A stretch of 32,000 nucleotides of DNA, taken from the NCBI RefSeq assembly GCF_000427095.1, contig NC_021487.1, positions 1,629,146 to 1,661,145 on the forward strand, in the 5' to 3' direction. This DNA is from Chthonomonas calidirosea T49 (GTDB lineage Bacteria > Armatimonadota > Chthonomonadetes > Chthonomonadales > Chthonomonadaceae). The first letter of the stretch is position 1; each line of letters begins with the position of its first letter. A model generated the notes under the pieces. That model was not told where the DNA came from and made no database searches. It saw only the letters and a program-made list of their open reading frames with translations. The position numbers were made by a program, and so were the translations under genes. Of the stretch, positions 2,298-32,000 are shown in pieces.

Positions 2298-4813
2298 CTC
2301 TGCACACTTCTGCCATGGAGGGCACGAAGCGCACACAGCACAATCGGCACGAGCTCCGCAGTGGGTGGCAAGGTATTGGCTTTGTCAAGAAAGTCGAGAA
2401 GCACACGCTTTTCCGATTTTACATGGGATTTTGAGAGGTGGCGCGGCGCAGCAAGAAGTAGGGCAAGCGCGGTCGCATTCTCGTTGTGAAGCAAGGCGGC
2501 CTCAATGTCGGCAATGGGAAAGTTTCGCGGCAGCTCGGAGATCACCTTCAGCAGCGCCCCTTCCCCTTCACGCTCCGCATACGACAGCAGGCCGTAGACG
2601 CAATCCCCTATCCCCAACAGACGCCCAACGGCATGGGCTACCTGCCGACGTGCCACGGGAGAGGGAAGGCGCGCAAGCTGCTTGGCAAGTGCAAATGTCG
2701 CTCCCGTATCTGTTAACCGCACGAGCGCATCGGCAAGAATAGGAATGAGCGATGGCTCCGTATCTGGCTGTTCGAGCAGGGAGCGGAGGAGAGGAAGCGC
2801 GCTTTTTTCCCCTATATCTCCCAAAGCGCGTACAATAGCCCTTCGCAACGGGTGCCCAACGGGCAATCGCTTAAACCGTTCGCTCAAAGGCTGCACGGCT
2901 TTTGAAGCGCCTGCTTCGCCCAAAGCGAACGTAAGGGCTTCGAGTCGCTGACCATCCTCTTCCGTTGAGAAGAGACGAATAAGCGCATCAACCGCATCGG
3001 CCCCGCCCAACTTACCGAGCGCACGCACCAACGCGAAGCGATCGCTTTCGGAAAGCGCCTCTTGGGGGCCCTTCAACAGCGTGATCAGGGCCTGATTGGC
3101 GCGCCTATCTCCAAGCTTCCCTAAAGCCCTAGCGATCTCCCCAACAATATCGGTGCCGGTATCTTCAAGCGCCTTTAAAAGCAGATCCACAGCGCTTGTA
3201 TCTGCCGTCTCCCCCAAAGCCCGAGCGGCCTCGGCACGTACCGCTCGGCTGGGATCGCTTAAAGCTCTCCCTAGCTCCTCTATGGCGAGATGACTGCCTT
3301 TTTCCGTGAGCCCTTCGGCCGCTCGTCTCCGAGCCTCCTCCTCGGCCGCCCTTTGTAACGTACGAATATAGCGCCATTGGCGTAAACCAGAGCGGCCTAG
3401 ATCTTGAAGCACTTTTGTGGTCGAAACGGCCCCCTTATCTTCCAAAGAGCGCAGAAAAGGTAGCGCGGCTAGACGCATGACGGCTGCCAAGGCAAAAAGA
3501 AGATGATAGTTAATGATGGACAGGCCGAACAGCGAGATATGAACGCCAGCAAGCATCTGCAGAAGAATACCACCCACCATAGGGGCGATACCACCGATAA
3601 GGCCTGTAACTGCAGAGAGCGTGGCAGCATAGGTGGCCGTGCGTTGCGGTGGACTGCAGGCTATAATGAGATTGAACTGCGTCAGCCCGACCCCTGCCCA
3701 AAACAGACCACTGCCTAAGCTGTTGAATAACAGCAGAATAAGCGACAAAACGAGGTGATGAGGACTTGTGGGTATCCAAAAGAAGGGTAAGGTGAAAACG
3801 CCCACAACGTTCAAAACCAAAATCGGCTTGTTGCCAAACCGATCGGCCAAAAACCCCCATAAAGGCATCCCCAACATATTGCTGACCCCTACCACGGCAG
3901 CGAGTATCTGCATCCAAACATAGTTCAGACGGAGTATCTGCAGACCGTAGGCCGTAAAAAAAGGGGCGGCCACGAACTGACCAATGCAGAACACCGCGCT
4001 AAATAGCAGCAGCGCACGAAAGTTTGGATCGGCAAACGGAGCCCGATAGTGGTCTAGAAAACTTTGTCGTGACGCTTCCCCTTGGGTCGTAGCGGAAGAG
4101 GGCGTCGGCTCCGGCTGACGTAGAATCAGCACAAGAGAGAGCACAGCGCCCAATAGGCCTGCCGCAAAAACCACCGCAAAACCCATTGCTGGTTGCCGTC
4201 GGCTATGCACCATATAGTCGAGAAACCAGGCGGCCAACATGCCAACCAGCATGCCAACAAAACCAGCCACCATGTTGCGCCGCCCAAAATAACGGCCTCG
4301 ATGATCGGGCGGAACAAGGTCGGACATCCAAGAAGTCCAGGCAGGTTGAGGCATACTTGTAAGGATGGAAGAGAGCGTAAAAAGCAACAGAAAACCCACT
4401 AGTGCCAACGACCTTGGCAAGAAGAAGGGCAGAAGCAGAATGGGCAGCCAAAGCATGCGCCCATAAAAAGAGCACCAGGCCACAAACGGCTTACGGGCGC
4501 TTTTCTGCTCGGCCCAGTAGGCTGCAATCGGTTGGGTAAGAGCCGCTAAGGTGGGAATAGCGCTTAGAAGGCCGATGGCAAAACTGTCTGCATGAAGCCA
4601 AAGAGCAAAACCTGTGAGAAAGGCGCCACCGGTAAGCGTGATCCAGACCGTGGCCGCTGCCCCCTCCCAAATAGATATCTGCAGCCCTTGCAGCACCTCC
4701 CAACGGTTCAGGGAACGCGCGTTGGAGCTCTCTGCCTTTTGCTCGTGTTGCGTTTGAGTGCTCTCCATTCCTCCTAAAATCCGGCGAAATAGAGGTGTGG
4801 CATCGTATGCCAT
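2294..4813 (-). CDS. MFS transporter fused to a C-terminal HEAT-repeat (PBS-lyase-like) domain
   Basis: Of 839 aa, about aa 35-455 are hydrophobic with roughly 12 helices and MFS-like loops (DLVPPDHRGRYFGRRN; LADRFGNKP). About aa 500-735 carry repeated HEAT_2-type units (AVRAEAARALGE.., IARALGKLGD.., LVRALGKLGG.., IVRALGDIGE..). Confidence 0.8.
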   Translation of the reverse strand: MAYDATPLFRRILGGMESTQTQHEQKAESSNARSLNRWEVLQGLQISIWEGAAATVWITLTGGAFLTGFALWLHADSFAIGLLSAIPTLAALTQPIAAYWAEQKSARKPFVAWCSFYGRMLWLPILLLPFFLPRSLALVGFLLLFTLSSILTSMPQPAWTSWMSDLVPPDHRGRYFGRRNMVAGFVGMLVGMLAAWFLDYMVHSRRQPAMGFAVVFAAGLLGAVLSLVLILRQPEPTPSSATTQGEASRQSFLDHYRAPFADPNFRALLLFSAVFCIGQFVAAPFFTAYGLQILRLNYVWMQILAAVVGVSNMLGMPLWGFLADRFGNKPILVLNVVGVFTLPFFWIPTSPHHLVLSLILLLFNSLGSGLFWAGVGLTQFNLIIACSPPQRTATYAATLSAVTGLIGGIAPMVGGILLQMLAGVHISLFGLSIINYHLLFALAAVMRLAALPFLRSLEDKGAVSTTKVLQDLGRSGLRQWRYIRTLQRAAEEEARRRAAEGLTEKGSHLAIEELGRALSDPSRAVRAEAARALGETADTSAVDLLLKALEDTGTDIVGEIARALGKLGDRRANQALITLLKGPQEALSESDRFALVRALGKLGGADAVDALIRLFSTEEDGQRLEALTFALGEAGASKAVQPLSERFKRLPVGHPLRRAIVRALGDIGEKSALPLLRSLLEQPDTEPSLIPILADALVRLTDTGATFALAKQLARLPSPVARRQVAHAVGRLLGIGDCVYGLLSYAEREGEGALLKVISELPRNFPIADIEAALLHNENATALALLLAAPRHLSKSHVKSEKRVLLDFLDKANTLPPTAELVPIVLCALRALHGRSVQS

Positions 4814-4876
4814 CGTCCACCGGCAACTATGTTACCTTGAAGGAAGCCTATTGCCGCCTCCCTTTTTAAGGGGTAA

Positions 4877-6934
4877 ATGCAGGATTCGCCCGAGAAGATG
4901 AAGAAAAAAGTTTTCAGAAACCTTATTGACAAAGGAGTTGCAGAGGAAATGACCGTCGAAACGATAGGCGGTACCGCAGGATGGCAGCTCGACTACGCCT
5001 TTCCTCCTCCGCCGGAGTTCGCACGCCAAGCTAATATACGTGACCCAGAGATCTACGACCGCGCTGCAGCGGACTTCGAGAAGTTTTGGGCCGATTTCGC
5101 TGCAGAGCTGGACTGGATGCAGCCGTGGCACCGCATTCTTGAATGGAACCCGCCTCACGCCAAATGGTTCTTGGGTGGCAAGCTCAACGTGAGTGTCAAC
5201 TGCGTAGACAGACACCTCAAAACACATCCCGATAAAGTCGCCATTTTGTGGGAGGGCGAGCCAGGCGATATGAGAACGCTTACCTTTCGACAGCTGCATA
5301 AGGAGGTGAACCAGTTCGCAGCGGCCTTGCATTCTATAGGGGTGTCCAAAGGCGATCGGGTGACCATCTACATGCCGATGGTTCCTGAAGCCGTCATCGC
5401 CATGCTGGCTTGTACCCGCATAGGTGCAATGCACTCCGTGGTCTTCGGCGGCTTTTCGGCCGATAGCCTGCGCGAGCGCACCAACGATTGCGGTGCCAAA
5501 GTGGTGCTGACAGCCGATGGCTATTGGCGGCGCGGCAATATCGTGCCCCTGAAAAAGACAACTGACGAGGCTCTCACCGGTTGTCCAACTGTTGAGAAGG
5601 TCGTTGTGTTGCGCCGTATTGGCGAACAGGCCTCGATTACCATGCAGCCTGGCCGTGATATTTGGTGGCATGAGCTGGTGGCCTCTGCGCCTGCAGAGTA
5701 TCCTCCTGAGCCCATGGACTCGGAAGACCCTCTCTACGTGCTCTACACTTCCGGCAGCACCGGAAAGCCGAAAGGCATCTTGCACACGACTGGCGGCTAC
5801 CTTACCGGGGTGTATGCCACCACGAAAATGGTTTTTGACCTTAAACCCAACGACATCTACTGGTGCACGGCGGATGTAGGTTGGGTAACAGGGCATTCCT
5901 ACGTGGTCTATGGGCCGCTGGCCAATGGGGCTACCGTTGTTATGTACGAGGGATCGCCCGACTGGTCACGCGATGGCAAACCGTGCCAAGATCGCTTTTG
6001 GGACATCATCGAGAGGCATAAAGTAACTATTCTCTACACGGCACCAACCCTTATCCGTGCCTCTATGAAGTGGGGCGAGGAGCCACCCGCTCGTCACGAC
6101 CTCTCTAGCCTGCGGTTGCTTGGCACGGTCGGCGAGCCGATTAACCCAGAAGCGTGGCTTTGGTACCATAAAAACATCGGACACGAGCGCTGTCCCATTG
6201 TGGACACTTGGTGGCAAACCGAAACCGGCGCGATTATGATCTCGCCTCTGCCCGGCATCACCACCACGCGTCCGGGCAGTGCCACTAAGCCGCTCCCCGG
6301 CATCTTTGCCGACGTGGTGGACGAGCAGGGTAACTCCTTGCCACCAGGGCAGAAGGGCATTCTTGTGATTACAAAGCCCTGGCCTTCCATGCTGCGCACG
6401 CTCTGGGGCGACGACGAGCGCTATAAACAGGTCTATTGGTCGCGCTATCCCGGCCGGTACTTCCCCGGCGACGGCGCCATGCGCGATGCCGATGGCAACT
6501 TTTGGCTGCTCGGCCGAGTAGACGACATCCTGCTGGTGGCCGGCCATAACATCTCCACCATGGAGATGGAAAGCGTGCTAGTGGAGCACCCGGCGGTTGC
6601 GGAAGCAGCCGTCATCGGAAAAGCCCACGAGATAAAAGGCCAAGCGCCCGTAGCCTTTGTCATTGTGCGCCAACAATATGCTCCTCAGGATGCCGCGGCA
6701 GCAGAGAGGCTACGACAAGAGCTGAAGGAGTTTGTCGCTAAGAAACTAGGGGCTATCTGCCGACCCGACGATGTGATCTTAACCGCCGATCTTCCAAAAA
6801 CGCGCTCCGGCAAAATCATGCGGCGCCTTCTACGCGACATCGCCGAAGGACGTGTGCTTGGTGACACGACGACATTGGCCGATCCTACGGTTGTAGCAAA
6901 TCTGCGCAAAAAGTACGAGGGGACGGAAGCCTAA
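4877..6934 (+). CDS. acs: Acetyl-CoA synthetase (AMP-forming)
   Basis: Full-length Acs-like sequence with AMP-binding motif [18 protein letters not shown], and C-terminal [14 protein letters not shown] containing the regulatory Lys. The start is uncertain: ATG at 4877, 4898 or 4949. Starting at 4949 (MTVETIG...) gives a more typical N-terminus of 661 aa. Confidence 0.93.
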
Positions 6935-24649: not shown

Positions 24650-24677
24650 GTAGGGGCGCAGAGACCTGTGCCCCTAC
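24650..24677 (-). terminator. Hairpin overlapping the trmFO stop codon (no U tract)
   Basis: GTAGGGGC-12 nt-GCCCCTAC: an 8-bp stem. The stop codon (24674-24676) lies inside the right arm. Confidence 0.3.
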
Positions 24678-26074
24678 TTCCAGTCGGCCTCGATCTGTTG
24701 GGCGAACGCAGAGATAGCCTCAAGGGCGCGCTCTGCTTTTAGACGCGCCTTTTCTCGTTTATCGCGCACCGTGAGGCCTTGCAGTTCGGGCACAAGCCCC
24801 CAGTTGGCGTTCATCGGGGCAAAATGTTTGGGGTCGGCCTCCACTAGATAGTGGCAAAGGGCGCCCAACACGGTTATTTTGGGTGGCACGGCGGGCGGTA
24901 AACCTTTCAGCCATCGTAGGGCATTGATGCCGGCGATCATCCCGATAGCTGCCGACTCCAGGTAGCCTTCCACGCCCGTGATCTGGCCGGCCAAGAAGAT
25001 TCCGGGATGCTTTCTCAGTTCAGCGTGTGCCGTAAGCACCAGCGGTGCGTTTACATAGGTGTTACGGTGCATCACGCCATAGCGCACGAACTCAGCGTTC
25101 TCAAGGCCAGGGATCATTCGAAAGATGCGCTTCTGCTCGCCCCATTTCAAGCGCGTTTGAAACCCCACCATCCCCCAAAGGGTGCCCTCCCGATTCTCCT
25201 GCCGCAACTGCACCACCGCGTAGGGGCGCTTTCCAGTGCGTGGGTCTATCAACCCTATTGGCTTCATGGGGCCGTAGAGAAGGGTTCGAGGTCCGCGCCG
25301 TGCCAACTCTTCAATAGGCACACACATTTCAAAGAACACCATCTTTTGTGCCGGCTCCGCCTGTTCAAAATCGTGCAGAGGGGCCAACTCCGCATGGCAA
25401 AGCGCCTCCCAGAAGGCCATATACTCTTCTTTGGTAAGGGGACAGTTCAGGTAGTCTGCGCTTATCGCCGTCTCGGTTGCGCATTCGGCAGTGGCTTCGC
25501 CACCCACCCCTTCTTGCCTGGCGCCGCGCCCTCGCCGCGAGGCGCGAAATAGGCGGCTCCAATCCAGGCTTTCGCCAAGCACGGTGGGGGCGACCGCGTC
25601 GTAAAACGAGAGGGCGGTGTTGTCCGTAAGCTGCTTCAGCTCCTGTGCCAGCGCATCCGAGGTAAGCGGACCGGTGGCGAGAATGAGGGGGCGCGCCTCA
25701 GGGAGTTGCGTTACCTCCTCTCGAATCACGGTGATGTTTGGATGGCTCTCGATGGCCGCGGTAACGTCACATGCAAACCGTTCACGGTCTACCGCCAAGG
25801 CCTCTCCAGCCGGCACCGCATGGCGCTGAGCGATAGGCAGAATGAGGGAGCCGAGTCGACGCATCTCCTCCTTTAAAACGCCACTCGCGTTGGTCAGCAA
25901 CGTGGATTTAAAAGAGTTAGAGCATACCAGCTCGGCTAGGTTCGCCGTACGGTGCACCGGCGTCTGACGTTTGGGACGCATTTCGTAAAGGTGCACTTTT
26001 GCACCACGCTGTGCACACGCCCACGCAGCTTCTACTCCGGCAAAACCGCCACCGACAACGGTTATCGTCTCCAT
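24674..26074 (-). CDS. trmFO: Methylenetetrahydrofolate--tRNA-(uracil54-C5)-methyltransferase TrmFO
   Basis: FAD-binding N-terminus ITVVGGGFAGVEAAWA, plus CSNSFKS, YLNCP and GQITGVEGYLESAA. I chose ATG at 26074 (METITVVGGG) over the 27-codon upstream extension from 26155. Confidence 0.92.
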   Translation of the reverse strand: METITVVGGGFAGVEAAWACAQRGAKVHLYEMRPKRQTPVHRTANLAELVCSNSFKSTLLTNASGVLKEEMRRLGSLILPIAQRHAVPAGEALAVDRERFACDVTAAIESHPNITVIREEVTQLPEARPLILATGPLTSDALAQELKQLTDNTALSFYDAVAPTVLGESLDWSRLFRASRRGRGARQEGVGGEATAECATETAISADYLNCPLTKEEYMAFWEALCHAELAPLHDFEQAEPAQKMVFFEMCVPIEELARRGPRTLLYGPMKPIGLIDPRTGKRPYAVVQLRQENREGTLWGMVGFQTRLKWGEQKRIFRMIPGLENAEFVRYGVMHRNTYVNAPLVLTAHAELRKHPGIFLAGQITGVEGYLESAAIGMIAGINALRWLKGLPPAVPPKITVLGALCHYLVEADPKHFAPMNANWGLVPELQGLTVRDKREKARLKAERALEAISAFAQQIEADWK

Positions 26075-26180
26075 TTTCTGTTGCGCTCCGCTTTCGCAGC
26101 ACCTGGGGTGATTCTTGTTTCCACTCTTGCCTGTTGAGCGAAGAGGGCACCCCAACCAAGCTACAACCCCTATGATACCC

Positions 26181-26207
26181 TACCCTTCTCCTTTCAGGAG
26201 AAGGGTA
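26181..26207. other. Perfect 12-bp inverted repeat with a 3-nt loop between the muramidase gene and trmFO
   Basis: TACCCTTCTCCT-ttc-AGGAGAAGGGTA; all 12 pairs checked by hand. No U tract on either strand. Confidence 0.5.
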
Positions 26208-26288
26208 AGGAGATGGAGCCGTTATACGCTTACGCAAGCTGACATCCTACATTCTCCATCTGCTATTCGCCATTCCCTTGAATTGACG

Positions 26289-26324
26289 AAGGCGTCGGGC
26301 TTAACATCGCAACACCGACGCCTT
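26289..26324. terminator. 10-bp hairpin abutting the muramidase stop codon
   Basis: AAGGCGTCGG-16 nt-CCGACGCCTT. The T run (TTTT) follows it on the plus strand, although the adjacent gene is on the minus strand. Confidence 0.4.
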
Positions 26325-27023
26325 TTAGACCTGAGGGGGATGGAATGAGTTAGCAGGCAAGCGAATGCAAGCCGGAATAGGAATACCGAACAGCCCACAT
26401 AGAGCTCGAATATCCTCACCGTGAAAACGATCCCGATCGGTCTCTTTCACCGAGGGGATGCCGGGAACGGTTCCTCGAGGAGTATACTGCCAAAACGTCC
26501 ACTTTTGCCAGCCCTTGGGCAATCGTGGGTTGGGCTGCCCCGTGTAGTGAGCCACCCAAAGCGGATGCCCAGAATAGGCATCCGTGCCGTCCATCCACTC
26601 GTCCCAAAAGGCGGGGCTTGTGTAGATGATGGGCAGCTTACCTATCATGGTGCGCGCCGTGATAAGAAACATGGAGACAGCAAACTGCAGGCGCGCTTTG
26701 CCAATGCGTTGGGCGCCCTCAAGGTCTTCCAAATCGAGAGCGATGGGCAGATCTCGGGCGGGGTCGTAACCGGCACGACGGGCTGTGCGGATGCAGAACT
26801 CGGCTTGCCAACCACCTGGCTCATCGCAACGGAAGTAGTGATATACTCCGCGCACTATCCCCACAGAACGCATGCCGGAGAGGTTCCTTTCTAAATAGGG
26901 GTCAACAATGCTTGTCCCTTCGGTGGCTTTACAAAAAGCGAACCCGATCCCCCCACACTCCACCTGCTCCCAGTCAATGCCGTTGTCGTCGTGACTTATG
27001 TCTACTCCTTCTAGCAACGCCAT
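26325..27023 (-). CDS. Glycoside hydrolase family 25 muramidase (endolysin-like), no signal peptide
   Basis: GVDISHDDNGIDWEQV...GFAFCKATEGTS..D......N......G...GVYHYF is the GH25 N-terminal signature. It is a 232-aa single domain. The SD AAGGAG abuts the ATG with unusually short spacing. Confidence 0.85.
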   Translation of the reverse strand: MALLEGVDISHDDNGIDWEQVECGGIGFAFCKATEGTSIVDPYLERNLSGMRSVGIVRGVYHYFRCDEPGGWQAEFCIRTARRAGYDPARDLPIALDLEDLEGAQRIGKARLQFAVSMFLITARTMIGKLPIIYTSPAFWDEWMDGTDAYSGHPLWVAHYTGQPNPRLPKGWQKWTFWQYTPRGTVPGIPSVKETDRDRFHGEDIRALCGLFGIPIPACIRLPANSFHPPQV

Positions 27024-27172
27024 CTCCTTAAAAACGTTCTCTCTGCCTCTTCGTTACAGAAAACCTTGCAAAACCTCCCTTATCCGTTAGACAGAGAGAA
27101 AGGCAGAAAAAGCTCCGAAATTCCCTTCCAAAAATGCTAGTTTTTTCGGCTACAAAAGGGAAAACTAGAGAG

Positions 27173-27217
27173 TTTACTTGCCCGCCGATGCATCTTAGGC
27201 ATTGGCGGGCAAGTAAA
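27173..27217 (-). terminator. Long hairpin immediately after the 84-aa membrane-protein stop
   Basis: TTTACTTGCCCGCC / GGCGGGCAAGTAAA forms a 14-bp stem, with an inner ATGC/GCAT 4-bp extension. On the minus strand it is followed by ctctctagTTTTcccTTTTg, a T-rich tail that is not immediately adjacent. Confidence 0.45.
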
Positions 27218-27219
27218 AG

Positions 27220-27474
27220 CTAGGAATTGGAATTAGATGAGCCTTCTAACTTCTGAGCGGTACGTTGAATAGCTCCGTCGGCCCAGGTCTGAATCTGTTG
27301 CGCCAATACCGGAATCACCTTCTGCAGCTCCTCCTGAACCAGCGGACGCACCGCATCGGGCACAACTTTGCTTTTGATCTTAAGCTGGTCAGCCCGAATG
27401 GTTAACATCCGATGCAACACTCCACCCAAAAACCCCAACGTGAGGGGTACAAGGTGCGATAAAAAACTGCCCAT
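27220..27474 (-). CDS. Small single-pass membrane protein (holin-like candidate)
   Basis: 84 aa with an N-terminal hydrophobic helix (LVPLTLGFLGGVL) followed by an amphipathic helical tail. Its position just upstream of the muramidase fits a holin. No SD precedes the ATG, so the call is tentative. Confidence 0.45.
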   Translation of the reverse strand: MGSFLSHLVPLTLGFLGGVLHRMLTIRADQLKIKSKVVPDAVRPLVQEELQKVIPVLAQQIQTWADGAIQRTAQKLEGSSNSNS

Positions 27475-27593
27475 AGTTTTTGCGCGCAGAAACCGCCGAC
27501 CTAACTAGAGGGTGCGGTTTGCGGGCGCTTTTCTCCTTTCCTTTTCGTTTTGACGGTCGGTGAAGAACCTCATTTCGGCAATGGGCACGCCGC

Positions 27594-27872
27594 TTAAAAC
27601 GCTTGGTAGCGCCCGCTGCGTCTTCGATAGCGAATGGCGATATCTAGCTTCTCCTCGATGCGCGCGAGGCGGGCATTCAGTTCCGAAAGCGTCTGATCGC
27701 GCTGCTCGTTACGCGCCTGCTCAGCCCGCATTTCGCTCTGAACTCCACCAACGCGCTCCTCCAACAGGGCAAGCCGATTGGCCTGACGAATCAACGTGGC
27801 AACGGCCGCTCCGATCCCACTGATCAACGAAACTGTGGCCATAGCCACCGTTATTGGCTCTGTGCTGGTCAT
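27594..27872 (-). CDS. Small membrane protein: N-terminal TM helix plus coiled coil (holin/lysis-accessory candidate)
   Basis: 92 aa with TM helix ITVAMATVSLISGIGAAVATLI, then a heptad-like region LLEERVGGVQSEMRAEQARNEQRDQTLSELNARLARIEEKL. SD GGGGAGAG lies just upstream. Confidence 0.55.
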   Translation of the reverse strand: MTSTEPITVAMATVSLISGIGAAVATLIRQANRLALLEERVGGVQSEMRAEQARNEQRDQTLSELNARLARIEEKLDIAIRYRRRSGRYQAF

Positions 27873-27893
27873 CTTCTCTCCCCTTTGTGCACC

Positions 27894-28154
27894 TCAATAC
27901 AGCCCAATAAGGAGCGCACCGTTTGTGCTGGAGCCAGTCGCCCACACCTGCTGAACGGCAATAGGGTTATAGCCTTTTATAAAAGGGATGGTGAGCTGGT
28001 CTCCGCCCAGCGTGGTGACATGAAGCGTGCAATCGGCGCTCACCAAAATCCCACGAGCATAAGGAACACCGCTCACGCTGGCTGCCACCAGCTGGGTGTC
28101 GCTGGGCGCGATAAGCCAGGCGCGCTGGGCTGGGTTTGCAGGAGGAATATTCAT
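27894..28154 (-). CDS. Small phage structural protein, resembles the head-spike-base family (RcGTA Rcc01079-like)
   Basis: 86 aa with strong SD AAGGAGGG and a 5-nt spacer. The start overlaps the upstream stop (ATGA). The pattern IAPSD..L......ARGILV....L.V.T.GG....I.F..G..PI.V..V.ATG.......LIGL matches my memory of that family. Confidence 0.55.
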   Translation of the reverse strand: MNIPPANPAQRAWLIAPSDTQLVAASVSGVPYARGILVSADCTLHVTTLGGDQLTIPFIKGYNPIAVQQVWATGSSTNGALLIGLY

Positions 28155-28483
28155 CTGCGCCCTCCTTGTTTGCCCCCTGTACCACTCCTTAACGAGCCCG
28201 CCAGCACCTGCTTTTCCAAAGCATCTACCCGGCCTTTAAGCCGCTCCCACTCCCTCGCCATCTCCTCAAACGTAGGCAACCGTCGCTCGCTGCCGTCCGG
28301 AAAAGCTGCGGGGAAGGGGGCAAGCTTAGGGTCTTCCGGCCCTGCAACGGTCTGCACCTCCAACATCGGTTCAGCGCAAACGGCCTCACTTATCTGCGAA
28401 ACCAACAGCCATTTTTGGCAGGGGTACAGCACCCCCTCCACACGAAAGCCCCGCCCTTGTCCTCGACATCGCACAGCATACAT
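28151..28483 (-). CDS. Phage-associated hypothetical protein
   Basis: 110 aa preceded by a very strong SD (GGAAGGAGGGGAGGAGAG) 24 nt after the capsid stop. The C-terminal half is helical (FEEMAREWERLKGRVDALEKQV). No family recognised. Confidence 0.55.
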   Translation of the reverse strand: MYAVRCRGQGRGFRVEGVLYPCQKWLLVSQISEAVCAEPMLEVQTVAGPEDPKLAPFPAAFPDGSERRLPTFEEMAREWERLKGRVDALEKQVLAGSLRSGTGGKQGGRR

Positions 28484-28507
28484 CTCTCCTCCCCTCCTTC
28501 CAAAAAG

Positions 28508-29437
28508 CTATGCGGTGGCATTGGAACCGTAAGCAAGCTGCCAAAGTCCATAGCCCTGCACGTAGCGCCCCCGCACGGTGAAATGGTAGCGCTCGCGAAT
28601 GCGGGCCTCCGGCATGTCCATGTCGGTTTCGAGCGTGATCGGCACGTCGCTGCGATTCTGGATAACAATGGGTTTCACCTCGCGACTGCAGTCCAGCAAG
28701 AACCATTGATAGCCTGAAATGTAGGGATTGATCACCAGCTTATAGCGGCCATTAAAGTAGTTGCGATAGGGGGTAGAGGGCACCCCAGCCGTGCCCACCT
28801 CGCCAGGCTGGTACACGATGTCCTGAGCCACAAGGTTCCATGCGCGCCGCGCCAACAGCGGCCCCACCACCAATGTGTCGGGCACCACATGCATCGGAAT
28901 GCCCTTGTCATCTACAAAGCTCATCATCGCGGTTGCGGCGGCCTCTAAAGACGCATCGCTGAGAGGCGCGGTGGTGATGTTGCTCTGAATAGGGCTGCTT
29001 CCTTCCTGATGATTCGCATTGAAGAAGTACTGCCCATCATAGCAAAGCTGCGAAAACCCAGCTACCAACCCCTGAAACGCCAGCTGATTCCAGTGCCGCA
29101 CCGGCTCCTGAGCCAGCTCCCGAACCCGAAGCATGATCAGGCCGTACTGATCGTCCTCGATCATGCGCCTATCAATCACCAAAGCACCCTTGTAGAGAAT
29201 ATCGGCCAGCTGATAGGTATCTTCTCGAAGCGCCTGCTCTTTTATCTCATCGGCAAACGGCTGCATAACCGCTCCACGACCAAGCCAGGCGTAACGCTGA
29301 ATGGGCAGGGTCGTCGGCAGCTCCGTGGCGATCTGGCGCCAATCCGCCTTTTCGTTGGCCTCCAAATAGGCGTTGTTAAACTCCGTTTTGATCCCCGCCT
29401 GCGTTAACAAAAGCAGGTCGGATGTCACAATGGCCAT
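28508..29437 (-). CDS. Major capsid protein, Mu gpT-like family (HK97 fold)
   Basis: 309 aa. The motifs CYDGQYFFNANH and WFLLDCSREVKPIVIQNR correspond to conserved blocks I recall from Mu gpT, and the N-terminal block ...F..AY......W..IA......P...Y.WLG also fits. SD GAAGGAG with a 9-nt spacer. Confidence 0.9.
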   Translation of the reverse strand: MAIVTSDLLLLTQAGIKTEFNNAYLEANEKADWRQIATELPTTLPIQRYAWLGRGAVMQPFADEIKEQALREDTYQLADILYKGALVIDRRMIEDDQYGLIMLRVRELAQEPVRHWNQLAFQGLVAGFSQLCYDGQYFFNANHQEGSSPIQSNITTAPLSDASLEAAATAMMSFVDDKGIPMHVVPDTLVVGPLLARRAWNLVAQDIVYQPGEVGTAGVPSTPYRNYFNGRYKLVINPYISGYQWFLLDCSREVKPIVIQNRSDVPITLETDMDMPEARIRERYHFTVRGRYVQGYGLWQLAYGSNATA

Positions 29438-29499
29438 ATCGTTTCACTCCTTCAAAAGTCCATCCAATGCAACAAGCAACTTAACAGGAGAGATTGCCT

Positions 29500-29931
29500 C
29501 TAGCGAACCGCGACATCAATGCGAATGCGAACGTCGTTCGCATCCTCCACCCCAACCACATAGCCCACCAACGTGTTTGGGTTGGAGCCGTTGGTGGCGT
29601 TTGTCGTCAGCGTCTGATCGTCGAGCGCGTAGATGGCATCTCCTACCAAATTTTGTGAGGCAGAGGACAGCGCGAACACATAGGTGCCCGTCTTCTGTAC
29701 GCGAATGCTCTGTGCCCCCGCTGGTCCTCCGCTGTTATCTATGGTCTCGTACGCGACGCCCAAAAAGTTATCGGCGGTAACTGCCGCACCCGCCCTTGCT
29801 GGGTAGGCGTATCCGTCGGCATTATAAGCCACCACCAACGTTCCCTTGTTGATGCGCACCGCGCCCATTTTGTAGGCCACGATCTGCCCCGGTTTCCTTT
29901 GAGCCTCGCGCGGCCCTGTAGATGCTGCCAT
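29500..29931 (-). CDS. Putative head decoration/cement protein (DUF2190-like, beta-rich)
   Basis: 143 aa located between the protease/scaffold and capsid genes. Gly/Val/Ala-rich beta pattern (FLGVAYETIDNSGG...IRVQKTGTYVF....LVGDAIYALDDQT). SD AGAGGAG. Confidence 0.55.
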   Translation of the reverse strand: MAASTGPREAQRKPGQIVAYKMGAVRINKGTLVVAYNADGYAYPARAGAAVTADNFLGVAYETIDNSGGPAGAQSIRVQKTGTYVFALSSASQNLVGDAIYALDDQTLTTNATNGSNPNTLVGYVVGVEDANDVRIRIDVAVR

Positions 29932-29965
29932 CCTAAACGTCTCCTCTTGTTAAAAATCGTGCTCT

Positions 29966-31441
29966 CTATTCTCTCGCCGCTAACAGGTTCTCCGCAAACG
30001 CCTCCTGTTTCTCCGGCGTGGTAAACCCCATCTTAATGGCCATGGCTCGCTGCGCTTCCGATAGCCGTTCCCAAGCGCTGGTTGCTCCCCGCTCTTCAGC
30101 GGGGCCTGGAAGGAGGCAGGGTGCTGACACTCGCCGGCCTCCACCCGCAGCCTCCACACCAAACCTTGCATCGGCCTCCAGATTCCAGGCGAGCGCTTTG
30201 GCTCTCACAACCTCGATCGGCTCGAAATCCACCTGCGCGCCTATGGTCGTTCCGCTCTCCGCGCCATAAAGACGTATGGCCGCTCTTTTTGCCTCTGCCC
30301 GTGCCTCCTCAAGTGCACCGAGGCCGAGCTTCGCCATCTCTAGCCGATGTCGCAAGTCTGACGCTGAAACGATGCCGTGCTCCTGCAACAGCTGCACAAC
30401 CGCGCTGTCGAGCTCACTAACAGCCTCTATCGGCTGTGTCGTCTCCTCTCCAAGAACCCCATCGCTATCCAACAAGGCCTCCTCCATCTCCAAAACGGCC
30501 TCTAGCTGCTTCGCAGGCTCCTCCGCCTTCGCCATCACCTCCTGCCCTCGCCGCAAAGCGGAGAGAATCTGCCGCACTCCCTCTTTCCAATGCATGGACA
30601 TCTCGCTCCTTTCTCCATCCCTTCTATCCATCCGTTGCCGCACCTGCGCGCGGGCGCGTAAACGTTTCAACGCCTCCTCAAACGAAAGCACCTCATCCAC
30701 CAACCCCACCTGCACAGCCTGATGCCCTACAAAAAGCCCTCCGCGCGCGACCTGCTGCAGCTGCTGCTCAGTAAGAGCCCGTCGCTGCCGCACAAAGCGG
30801 GTAAATATCGCTCCCACCGTGCCCACATAACGCTCCAAATAGCGCACATCGGCAGGTAGAAGCGGCTGACCTGGCGCTCCTACCCGCTTGCGTGGGCCGG
30901 TAGCAACCGCATGCACCCGCAAGCCAGCCCGCTCTAACGCGCGACTGCTGTCGGTAACCACCAACAAAGCCCCTACCCCTCCCACCGTCGCCGTTGGGTT
31001 ACAGTAGATGGCATCGGCAGCACAAGCGATCCAGTAGGCCGCACTACACCCGATATCTTCGATGTAGGCCGCTAAAGGCTTACGCCGCGCGAATTGACAG
31101 AGGGCCATCGCCAGGTCATGCGTGCCCGCCACTTGCCCTCCCGGCGAATCGATGCGCAGCAGAAGAGCTCTCACTTTCGGATCGCTGAACGCTTGGCCTA
31201 CCGCAAAACGCGCCCAACGCGTGGAACATCCTCCCTCCACCACCTGCTTCGTTAACCGACCCACCAGATTGAGCACCGCAACGCCATCCTCAAGCACTTG
31301 AAAACCTGGCCCAGTCTCCAGCAAACCAGCCCTCTGTTCCTCGGGTAGCGTTGCCTGCAACACCCGCGGCTCGGAGGCAGCCGCCTCCGCATGGGGTTCC
31401 AACGCCCACAGGGCATCCTCCGTTAACCAACCGTTTCCCAT
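29966..31441 (-). CDS. Prohead protease (S49/SppA, ClpP-fold) fused to a C-terminal coiled-coil scaffold-like domain
   Basis: S49 core with LLLRIDSPGGQVAG and the candidate nucleophile in IGCSAAYWIACAAD. From about aa 270 it is a long Glu/Ala/Leu/Arg-rich helical region. I prefer ATG at 31441 (AGGTGA SD, 5-nt spacer); the ORF-track GTG at 31450 is 3 codons upstream. Confidence 0.88.
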   Translation of the reverse strand: MGNGWLTEDALWALEPHAEAAASEPRVLQATLPEEQRAGLLETGPGFQVLEDGVAVLNLVGRLTKQVVEGGCSTRWARFAVGQAFSDPKVRALLLRIDSPGGQVAGTHDLAMALCQFARRKPLAAYIEDIGCSAAYWIACAADAIYCNPTATVGGVGALLVVTDSSRALERAGLRVHAVATGPRKRVGAPGQPLLPADVRYLERYVGTVGAIFTRFVRQRRALTEQQLQQVARGGLFVGHQAVQVGLVDEVLSFEEALKRLRARAQVRQRMDRRDGERSEMSMHWKEGVRQILSALRRGQEVMAKAEEPAKQLEAVLEMEEALLDSDGVLGEETTQPIEAVSELDSAVVQLLQEHGIVSASDLRHRLEMAKLGLGALEEARAEAKRAAIRLYGAESGTTIGAQVDFEPIEVVRAKALAWNLEADARFGVEAAGGGRRVSAPCLLPGPAEERGATSAWERLSEAQRAMAIKMGFTTPEKQEAFAENLLAARE

Positions 31442-31467
31442 GATTTTCACCTATCGCTTTTAAGAAA

Positions 31468-31481
31468 TAGCGAGATCGCTA
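31468..31481. promoter_or_regulatory. Operator-like palindrome upstream of the protease/scaffold gene
   Basis: TAGCGA-ga-TCGCTA, with a further ATCGCT half-site at 31453-31458. It lies 27-40 nt upstream of the ATG at 31441. Confidence 0.25.
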
Positions 31482-31502
31482 ATTCCCATTTCATAAGCAT
31501 TC

Positions 31503-31544
31503 GGCGCAGGAGACTCTTGCTGAAAGGCAAGAGAAGAATGCGCC
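31503..31544. other. Compound hairpin in the ORF-free region upstream of the capsid operon
   Basis: The outer stem is GGCGCA/TGCGCC and the inner stem CTCTTGC/GCAAGAG, with a symmetric 5-nt internal loop. It is followed on the plus strand by T-rich ttccatcttttcctttg. Confidence 0.4.
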
Positions 31545-32000
31545 TTCCATCTTTTCCTTTGCCTAAAAAAGTGCTTTCCTGACAACGATCAAATTGACTG
31601 TGCAGGTCACGTAAGGCACCGAATGCCGCGTACTAGAAAAGCCGCTTCCTTCACTACCCCAGCTGCCCAGATCGTCGAGACGGTTGAGGCATCAGAAAAT
31701 GCCCTAACCCTGCGGCGAACACCAACTTCGCAAGCACCAATAGAGAGGGTGAGCATGATATCGAGAAGGTGAATTCTCCTTGCTAGCAGCATGGGAATCA
31801 TGCTTAGCCGCTATTAGAGAGCCACGCGGCACAGCAAGTCGTTGGACGATCTGTGATGAAGATTCACCGTCGGGTCTTTGTCAACGTTTTAGCTGAGCGT
31901 AGTTCATCCAAGCACTTACGGTCTCTAAAGCTAGAGATAAAAACCGGTAATTTTTCAATCGATCTGTCGTTCTGTTCTAAGGTATCTTGCCTTAACGAGT

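Follow-up and report, generated by a model that had tools for sequence, protein, structure and literature searches.

A stretch of 32,000 nt from the chromosome of Chthonomonas calidirosea T49 (hereafter the window) carries near its right end, on the minus strand at positions 26325-31450, a block of phage head and lysis genes that belongs to a larger element lying at two loci of the chromosome. This element is phage-derived and occupies a fixed chromosomal site; its functions are confined to packaging, virion structure and lysis, without genes for integration, lysogeny or replication. It is under purifying selection, appears to have co-diverged with its host and, in a sister species, forms a contiguous block at the corresponding site of the chromosome. 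As read from its genes, it is probably a vertically inherited domesticated prophage, resembling either a gene transfer agent (GTA) or the defective prophage PBSX, which has been split into two loci (designated A and B) and which would still make DNA-packaging particles.

Packaging genes beyond the window

The window was extended by means of the 3.44-Mb C. calidirosea chromosome GCA_001458035.1, to which it corresponds with 0 mismatches over 13,493 bases. In the following, L001 designates the C. calidirosea locus A record, L002 that of the other isolate, L015 locus B, and L020/L178 the contig of the sister species; other L numbers refer to relatives. The window turned out to contain the right-hand two-thirds of locus A. 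Past base 32000, the order is an opposite-strand pAdhesive_15 gene, the portal gene, TerL and a TerS-like open reading frame (ORF), followed by the host genes p303 and glycerate kinase (glyK). A preliminary description made from the window had reported a head module joined to a lysis module without portal, terminase or tail genes. Since the contig carries the TerS-like, TerL and portal genes 1.1-4.4 kb past the right edge, the absence of portal and terminase was a window-edge artefact. The absence of tail genes holds for this locus but not for the genome, in which tail-like genes occur at locus B. The "head plus lysis only" picture is the product of the window edge and of a chromosomal rearrangement.

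The portal protein matches phrog_3753 (8e-19) and is 58-66% identical to the portals of relatives, while TerL matches phrog_38 (2.4e-76) and displays Walker A (APPQVGKS) and Walker B motifs. The TerS-like ORF (241 aa, L001 2996-3721) overlaps the TerL frame (3414-4898) by ca. 300 nt, the Walker A motif falling within the shared stretch; the sister species likewise has both frames open, and the TerS homolog of L007 has just 159 aa.

These genes bear directly on the earlier proposal of an encapsulin-like protein shell that would be released by lysis and would not package DNA. A capsid protein of HK97 fold accompanied by protease/scaffold and decoration proteins would suit such a shell, as would the window taken by itself, without portal or terminase. 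Encapsulins are shells that have cargo and neither portal nor terminase, whereas here the adjacent portal, TerL and TerS-like genes have been kept under constraint (dN/dS, the ratio of non-synonymous to synonymous substitution rates, of 0.07-0.12) and no cargo gene was recognised. An encapsulin-like shell is therefore regarded as excluded, its residual likelihood being negligible.

Tail-side genes at locus B

A search with the 278-aa conserved protein of a relative retrieved a C. calidirosea homolog of 274 aa (P0135, CTKA_01688; c274 below) that is located on the same chromosome, 1.16 Mb from locus A and in the opposite orientation. A word-indexed homology search with the tube protein of a relative had given no C. 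calidirosea homolog, a false negative that was overturned by the c274-type query. The genes of this locus B are, in order, an SGNH esterase, c194, c274, c108, an opposite-strand GT2 gene, c180, a Phage_tube_2 protein, c227, c75 and c232 (the last two overlapping), a SocA-like ORF, an 849-aa protein (c849) and c367. They are orthologous to the tail-side genes of the relatives L003 and L013. The 412-aa tube protein matches Phage_tube_2 over the Pfam cut-off (4.3e-16) as well as phrog_290, annotated "minor tail protein"; the SGNH esterase is secreted and has an Ig-like domain, and c849 is beta-rich and Trp-rich, with discoidin-like and Fn3-like regions, and is not helical. Comparison of the c274, tube and c849 sequences with PDB gave nothing significant, the best match being 8xan, a "major tail structural protein" (E=0.008). 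Loci A and B, at about 3,125,955-3,136,072 and 1,961,160-1,974,328 of CDLG01000001.1, respectively, have no gene in common, and each of the four isolates sequenced carries the two of them. Locus B is bordered downstream by a host polysaccharide cluster and upstream by a 324-aa ORF and type III Cmr genes.

Organization in the sister species and origin of the split

In a metagenome-assembled genome (MAG) contig of a sister Chthonomonas species (L020/L178; MAG GCA_035294505.1), whose capsid protein is 98% identical to that of C. calidirosea at ca. 82% nucleotide identity, the head and tail halves form one contiguous block of ca. 24 kb. The order on this contig is glyK, p303, TerS-like gene, TerL, portal, adhesin-like gene, protease, decoration, capsid, p110, p86, p92, p84 and GH25, continued by lipase, c194, c274, c108, c180, tube, an opposite-strand acyltransferase, c227, c75, c232 and c849. 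The left host flank (glyK, p303) is syntenic between the two species, also with ca. 82% nucleotide identity, and the union of loci A and B matches the content of the contiguous element. Contiguity was seen in two samples and in a separate 50-kb contig bearing capsid, portal and tube variants at least 90% identical.

Homology to locus A extends from the shared host flank to the last ca. 50 nt of the GH25 gene, where it ends at L001 13064 (window 26374). Homology to locus B begins in the lipase gene, whose start codon lies ca. 20 nt past the GH25 stop of the sister species. This stop occurs 11 codons earlier than that of C. calidirosea, in which the last 11 GH25 codons (about 26328-26360) are new sequence made by the splitting rearrangement and are followed by trmFO. 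According to these alignments, the element was cut at the GH25/lipase boundary in the C. calidirosea lineage, with the breakpoint exactly at the stop codon of GH25. The same GH25-trmFO junction occurs in the independent de novo assembly of isolate L002, and the split is therefore real and older than the divergence of the isolates. The opposite orientations of A and B are compatible with a single inversion of ca. 1.16 Mb, which we infer to have produced it. When the gene upstream of locus B was sought beside trmFO in relatives, two metagenome loci were retrieved that are too distant and display neither arrangement.

The same gene set, without any broken ORF, occurs in four Chthonomonadaceae lineages, each with an arrangement of its own. 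In the lineage represented by L007, L013 and L018, the portal gene (L007 14299-15720) is away from TerL and packed between c274 and c108, ca. 6 kb past the capsid gene, and in one further lineage neither TerL nor portal is near the head genes. Such variation is compatible with the host genome having been described as "disorganized" (PMC4959169). Three further Chthonomonadaceae assemblies (L007/L018 and L017) repeat the succession of capsid gene, small genes and GH25, while in more distant canonical relatives p86 is directly followed by c274; the embedded lysis cassette therefore characterises the family and is not the scar of a deletion. The deletion remnant envisaged earlier does not agree with these data, since the gene set of relatives is wholly present in loci A and B together and the tail side has been parted from the head side by rearrangement.

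Selection on the element

Every element gene that was compared is under purifying selection, also after the split. Between C. calidirosea and the sister species, 16 element genes were compared (p84, c227, c75, c232, c849 and c367 being left out) and gave dN/dS of 0.015-0.23 for dS of 0.37-1.6, the adjacent host flank genes having dS of 0.55-0.63 and dN/dS of about 0.2. The lowest value is that of the capsid gene (0.015, dS 0.68), followed by decoration (0.044), p86 (0.047), portal (0.073), tube (0.081), TerL (0.088), GH25 (0.10), p110 (0.11), c274 (0.12), protease (0.15) and p92 (0.23).

A second comparison involved two isolates that both have the split, with p values calculated against neutrality. 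The whole of locus A differs by 29 synonymous and 11 non-synonymous changes (omega 0.12, p=2e-10) and the eight genes located in the window by 16 and 4, respectively (omega 0.08, p=2.6e-7), while the host flanks differ by 24 and 15 (omega 0.20, p=8e-7). Silent-site divergence is alike in the element (pS 0.0149) and the flanks (0.0121). At locus B, the four proteins compared are full-length in all available isolate sequences (four isolates for the tube protein, three variants for the others). The tube protein shows 0 amino-acid changes out of 412 in four isolates, and T49-type and P488 sequences differ by 13 changes over 1902 codons when approximately 60 would be expected under neutrality. The fastest-evolving proteins are c849 and c367, putative distal or receptor-binding proteins.

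These values have to be set against the possibility of an inert cryptic-prophage remnant that lost its early genes, was later broken and has not yet accumulated disabling mutations. The lack of lysogeny and replication genes would fit a remnant, as would the date of the split, recent relative to the divergence of the isolates, and the interruption of the head operon by a host-like gene on the opposite strand which is frameshifted in this assembly. The selection data, however, contradict inertness, given the low dN/dS over substantial dS at a shared chromosomal site and the omega found among isolates already split. Furthermore, the called element genes of both loci are free of stops and frameshifts, as are those of comparable isolates and relatives. 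As for the adhesin-like gene, L002 and L020 have it intact, and the assembly that shows the frameshift is based on 454/Ion Torrent reads (PMC4959169). An inert remnant is accordingly considered improbable.

Probable nature of the element

Each of the four ends was read over 7-10 kb of flank; these stretches carry host genes but no integrase, repressor or replication gene, and their precomputed Pfam annotations contain no transposase. The element would assemble portal-bearing, protease-matured and decorated capsids, which TerS and TerL would load with DNA and which the parts encoded at locus B, supplied in trans, would complete; the holin-like proteins p92 and p84 together with GH25 would then lyse the cell and release the particles. 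With genes 1.16 Mb apart, no single particle can hold the whole element, which precludes viral spread and makes it functionally GTA-like or PBSX-like. The separation of A and B exceeds one headful in C. calidirosea, while the ca. 24-kb block of the sister species could fit a Mu-sized head.

An ordinary functional temperate prophage with an unusual gap would explain the TerS-like, TerL and portal genes found directly to the right of the window, and canonical contiguous relatives do exist in other Armatimonadota and in IMG/VR. The preliminary description had itself named portal, terminase and tail genes contiguous on that side as the mark of such a prophage; portal and terminase are there but the tail genes are not, as they lie 1.16 Mb away in the opposite orientation. 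In addition, an intact temperate prophage has a contiguous genome with integration, lysogeny and replication modules, which is not the case here, no integrase, transposase, repressor or replication gene occurring at any end, and the contiguous copy of the sister species also adjoins host glyK/p303 at its left. The split and the absent early genes therefore exclude an ordinary prophage, to which only a very slight probability is given.

A capsid-forming satellite that builds heads of its own but takes its tails from a helper phage, in the manner of phage-inducible chromosomal islands of the capsid-forming type (cf-PICIs; 10.1101/2025.02.11.637232; PMC10085698), had also been put forward. Locus A alone, with TerS, TerL, portal, protease, capsid, small connector candidates and no tail gene, does resemble a head-and-packaging-only island. 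Nevertheless, the element has neither integrase, AlpA, primase/replicase nor regulator and possesses its own GH25 lysis cassette; matching tail-like genes are co-inherited with it and, in the sister species, adjoin the head genes in one block; and it is fixed at one site and seems to co-diverge with its host. The lack of an integration and replication module, the lysis genes and the cognate tail-like genes therefore exclude a satellite, which we rate as hardly more than a formal alternative.

Genomic features by which GTAs are defined are found here. Endogenisation without autonomous replication or integration (PMC9662315) is seen as two loci with host genes at all four ends, and purifying selection (PMC5026251) is seen both between species and among isolates. 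Co-diversification is suggested by an element dS close to that of the host flanks, in one inter-species comparison only, and by a density of single-nucleotide polymorphisms among isolates equal to that of the flanks. GTA particles, moreover, are too small for the whole gene set of the element, take up essentially random host DNA and bring it into recipient cells (PMC9662315), as the particles predicted here might. The earlier suggestion of a maintained unit or of a split GTA-like system is in line with this selection and with the presence of the remaining virion genes at a separate locus. Among established GTAs, that of Rhodobacter capsulatus (RcGTA) is distributed over five loci and VSH-1 of Brachyspira over two (PMC5026251). 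Like them, the C. calidirosea element consists of structural, packaging and lysis genes only, is endogenised at more than one locus with core host genes flanking it and is under purifying selection; it may likewise be vertically inherited, with a gene set that would not be packaged as one unit. Unlike them, it is of independent origin, with a Mu-gpT capsid and an S49 protease in the phylum Armatimonadota, for which a literature search found no described GTA; its two loci result from the recent splitting, specific to this lineage, of a block that is otherwise contiguous; and its lysis genes are located between head and tail-side genes instead of at a separate locus.

PBSX of Bacillus is a contiguous defective prophage under the control of its own repressor and sigma factor, and forms non-infectious particles that contain DNA and leave the cell by means of its lysis genes. 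The C. calidirosea element, whose particles are predicted from genes, is likewise chromosomal and non-infectious with lysis genes of its own, but it is split, and no repressor was recognised at its ends. A PBSX-like killer particle, that is, a phage-derived bacteriocin whose domesticated machinery is kept for interference competition and not for gene transfer, would leave the same genomic signature of structural, packaging and lysis genes alone under constraint, and the comparatively fast evolution of c849 and c367 would suit it. No toxin or immunity gene was recognised, except for the SocA/Panacea antitoxin-like ORF of locus B, and this use of the particles is considered unlikely, if still worth keeping in mind.

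With regard to phages, the head module resembles that of Mu, B3/D3112-like phages and Mushuvirus in its gpT capsid (PF10124, 2.3e-51) and in the order of protease/scaffold, capsid and small head-completion genes. It departs from Mu-like phages in having an S49 protease in place of Mu gpI (no PF10123 match), an extra cement protein, and neither the DDE transposase genes A/B nor other early genes. Among characterised phages, Mushuvirus and Pseudomonas Mu-like phages match best, with only 31-33% identity to any phage deposited.

Several points weigh against the interpretation as a domesticated, particle-forming prophage. The particle-forming role is predicted here from the genes. Neither tape measure, sheath nor baseplate was recognised among the element genes; the tube protein had no tblastn match in 50,697 phage genomes, and its structure prediction was unusable (predicted local distance difference test, pLDDT, of 37), while the c274 model (pLDDT 63) matched only generic Ig-like folds in PDB and BFVD. 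No regulator was recognised next to the C. calidirosea loci, nor was any regulatory motif common to both, the intergenic regions of A and B sharing no k-mers of 9-12 nt. The inter-species comparison involves a single MAG lineage, so that what speaks for vertical inheritance is one sister species with one shared flank, and what speaks for a single inversion is orientation. Finally, the time elapsed since the split is short (pS about 0.015), which makes intactness a weak argument by itself and leaves the skew of non-synonymous to synonymous changes to bear it.

Gene content of locus A in the window

All the element genes of the window are on the minus strand between 26325 and 31450 and number eight, not nine as first counted. 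Most of the other initial observations were confirmed, namely the S49 protease with a long tail, the cement/decoration-like protein, the Mu gpT-family capsid with the motifs quoted for it, the ATGA at which the 110-aa gene overlaps the 86-aa gene, the GH25 muramidase preceded by a hairpin and an AT-rich spacer, the trmFO neighbour, the host-like base composition and the absence of stops and frameshifts. Purine-rich Shine-Dalgarno sequences, said to precede most genes, were found on six of the eight. Of the two single-pass membrane proteins that had been announced, p92 has a clear transmembrane segment but p84 a weaker hydrophobic N-terminus.

The first gene of the head operon (29966..31450) encodes a 494-aa S49 head-maturation protease (Peptidase_S49, PF01343, 3.7e-32, over residues 121-270; phrog_53, 1.1e-52) whose 220 C-terminal residues are rich in Ala, Glu and Leu (16%, 15% and 11%) and presumably act as scaffold. 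It is followed by the gene of a 143-aa capsid decoration/cement protein (29500..29931), which matches phrog_1731 (1.3e-21) and, only just over the Pfam cut-off, Phage_cement_2 (PF09956, 4.5e-5), and which adjoins the capsid gene in all relatives examined. The 309-aa major capsid protein (28508..29437) belongs to the Mu gpT family, with a phrog_371 match of 4e-55 next to that with PF10124, and through this family is assigned the HK97 fold.

The next two genes are those joined by the ATGA overlap. The first encodes p110 (110 aa, 28151..28483), a small virion-module protein recognised by its conservation in relatives; it has no match in Pfam or phrog family scans, and its ca. 60 N-terminal residues are kept in L003, L004 and L012. 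The second encodes p86 (86 aa, 27894..28154), with a weak match to phrog_12296 (1.5e-5) and homologs that follow the capsid gene, directly or after p110, in L003, L004, L005, L007, L012, L020 and L096, a position that makes it a candidate head-completion or connector protein. A single-pass membrane protein with a coiled-coil-like tail, p92 (27594..27872, transmembrane segment at residues 6-28), is kept 3' of p86 in L003, L007 and L012 and may be a holin or lysis accessory. The small protein p84 (27220..27474), for which the gene caller favours a 62-aa form starting at 27408, is always encoded directly upstream of GH25 and shares the motif ...IRxxQLKIK with the product of the pre-GH25 gene of L007 (98 aa) and L003 (72 aa); with 2 synonymous and 0 non-synonymous changes between isolates, it could be the holin-like partner of GH25. 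The last gene (26325..27023) encodes the 232-aa GH25 muramidase, or endolysin (Glyco_hydro_25, 8.7e-40; phrog_291, 4e-28), beyond which lies the host gene trmFO (24674-26155; GIDA, 1e-93).

Right after the p84 stop, a GC-rich conserved hairpin is found on the minus strand (27177..27213; L001 12225-12261), followed by an AT/T-rich spacer of ca. 150 nt and the GH25 Shine-Dalgarno sequence; it is either terminator-like or a protein-binding palindrome. Its stem shows compensatory substitutions in isolate L002 and in the sister species L020, and the loop of one isolate is the reverse complement of that of the other, which gives the impression of a flipped palindrome. As many as 10 of the 141 differences between L001 and L002 are concentrated in this hairpin between p84 and GH25.

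At the other end of the block, the stretch that had appeared free of credible ORFs is in fact a divergent intergenic region of 550 nt (31451..32000) between the protease gene and the opposite-strand pAdhesive_15 gene, whose position just past base 32000 had left it out of sight. This region probably contains the promoter of the head operon, although it has no sigma-70 consensus match. More generally, a scan of 26000-32000 for sigma-70 promoters and terminators returned sites no commoner than in shuffled sequence, and the window contains no Rfam match and no tRNA or att-type landmark. The block has a GC content of 0.58 (0.56 in the host) and a GC content at third codon positions of 0.645 (0.616), and its codon usage correlates with that of the host at 0.93, the mean for host subsets being 0.957.

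The pAdhesive_15 gene itself, which encodes an ice-binding-like adhesin, is located between the portal and protease genes on the opposite strand (L001 6410-7436) and is conserved, with 381 aa in the sister species and 350 aa in another isolate. In the 454/Ion Torrent-derived assembly it is broken by two single-base indels, possibly a sequencing artefact.

At locus B, the SocA/Panacea antitoxin-like ORF (L015 16113-16496) is located between c232 and c849, where the sister species has no called gene. Upstream of the locus, the type III-B CRISPR Cmr genes (L015 2135-5934) look fragmented, with Cas10/Cmr2 in several ORFs, reflecting pseudogenisation or homopolymer sequencing errors. Genes for sugar modification also recur in or beside the virion modules, either on the opposite strand (GT2, twice, and Acyl_transf_3) or, in canonical relatives, on the same strand (GT34-like and GT9); their sites are L015 11220-12197, L013 9196-9903, L178 11236-12531, L176 12834-13448 and L177 16047-17267. 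The two GT2 genes have no mutual tblastn match. These embedded genes may be independent insertions or may serve to modify virion or receptor glycans.

Related cassettes in Armatimonadota and significance

The capsid family counts 166 confirmed matches among species-representative genomes, and the best 80 of these 166 are labelled Armatimonadota or unclassified MAGs. In 74 species of Fimbriimonadales and other Armatimonadota (L022-L095, e.g. L049 8790-10930), a compact cassette alone is conserved among core host genes, with variable flanks; it comprises a ca. 290-aa protein with weak Mu-gpI/head-protease/scaffold matches, a cement protein, a gpT capsid of 301-314 aa and two or three small ORFs. 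Pairs of sister species are syntenic across the whole locus, with capsid dN/dS of 0.006-0.10 and values mostly below 0.13 for the other two cassette genes, two closely related pairs giving 0.3-0.5. No TerL was detected by tblastn within 10 kb of the compact cassette, and 11 of the 74 loci have a portal homolog nearby, at positions that vary. A genuine portal gene is found at L022 16731-17825 (phrog_113, 2e-75; PDB portals down to 3e-14), ca. 6.7 kb from the capsid gene and beside an ABC transporter. Compact cassettes with portals at variable positions suggest that dispersed, constrained virion genes may be a phylum-wide theme.

Sigma-70-family genes are located beside the head cassette in L010/L011 (7163-7888, directly upstream of the protease gene in L010) and in L049 (12913-13539). 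They are possible dedicated regulators; none was seen beside the C. calidirosea loci.

Taken further, Armatimonadota might hold an independently evolved GTA lineage with Mu-gpT heads, in which the two-locus particles package host DNA and the compact cassette represents a second or older domestication, a proposal that we regard as tentative. The work also calls for some caution as to method, as the "missing" portal and terminase genes lay past the window edge and one word-indexed search missed the tube homolog.

These data bring to light, in a culturable species of the Armatimonadota, a credible GTA-like element that had not been described before. Few GTAs have been established by experiment, in a small number of lineages, and how frequently phages are domesticated into particles that serve their host is an open question. 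In this little-studied phylum, the signatures of domestication are the absence of selfish modules, a fixed site, purifying selection and intactness after the split. Since C. calidirosea can be cultured and four isolates have been sequenced, the prediction of particles is directly testable. If true, an independent GTA lineage in Armatimonadota would make dispersed, host-maintained virion genes a trait of the whole phylum.

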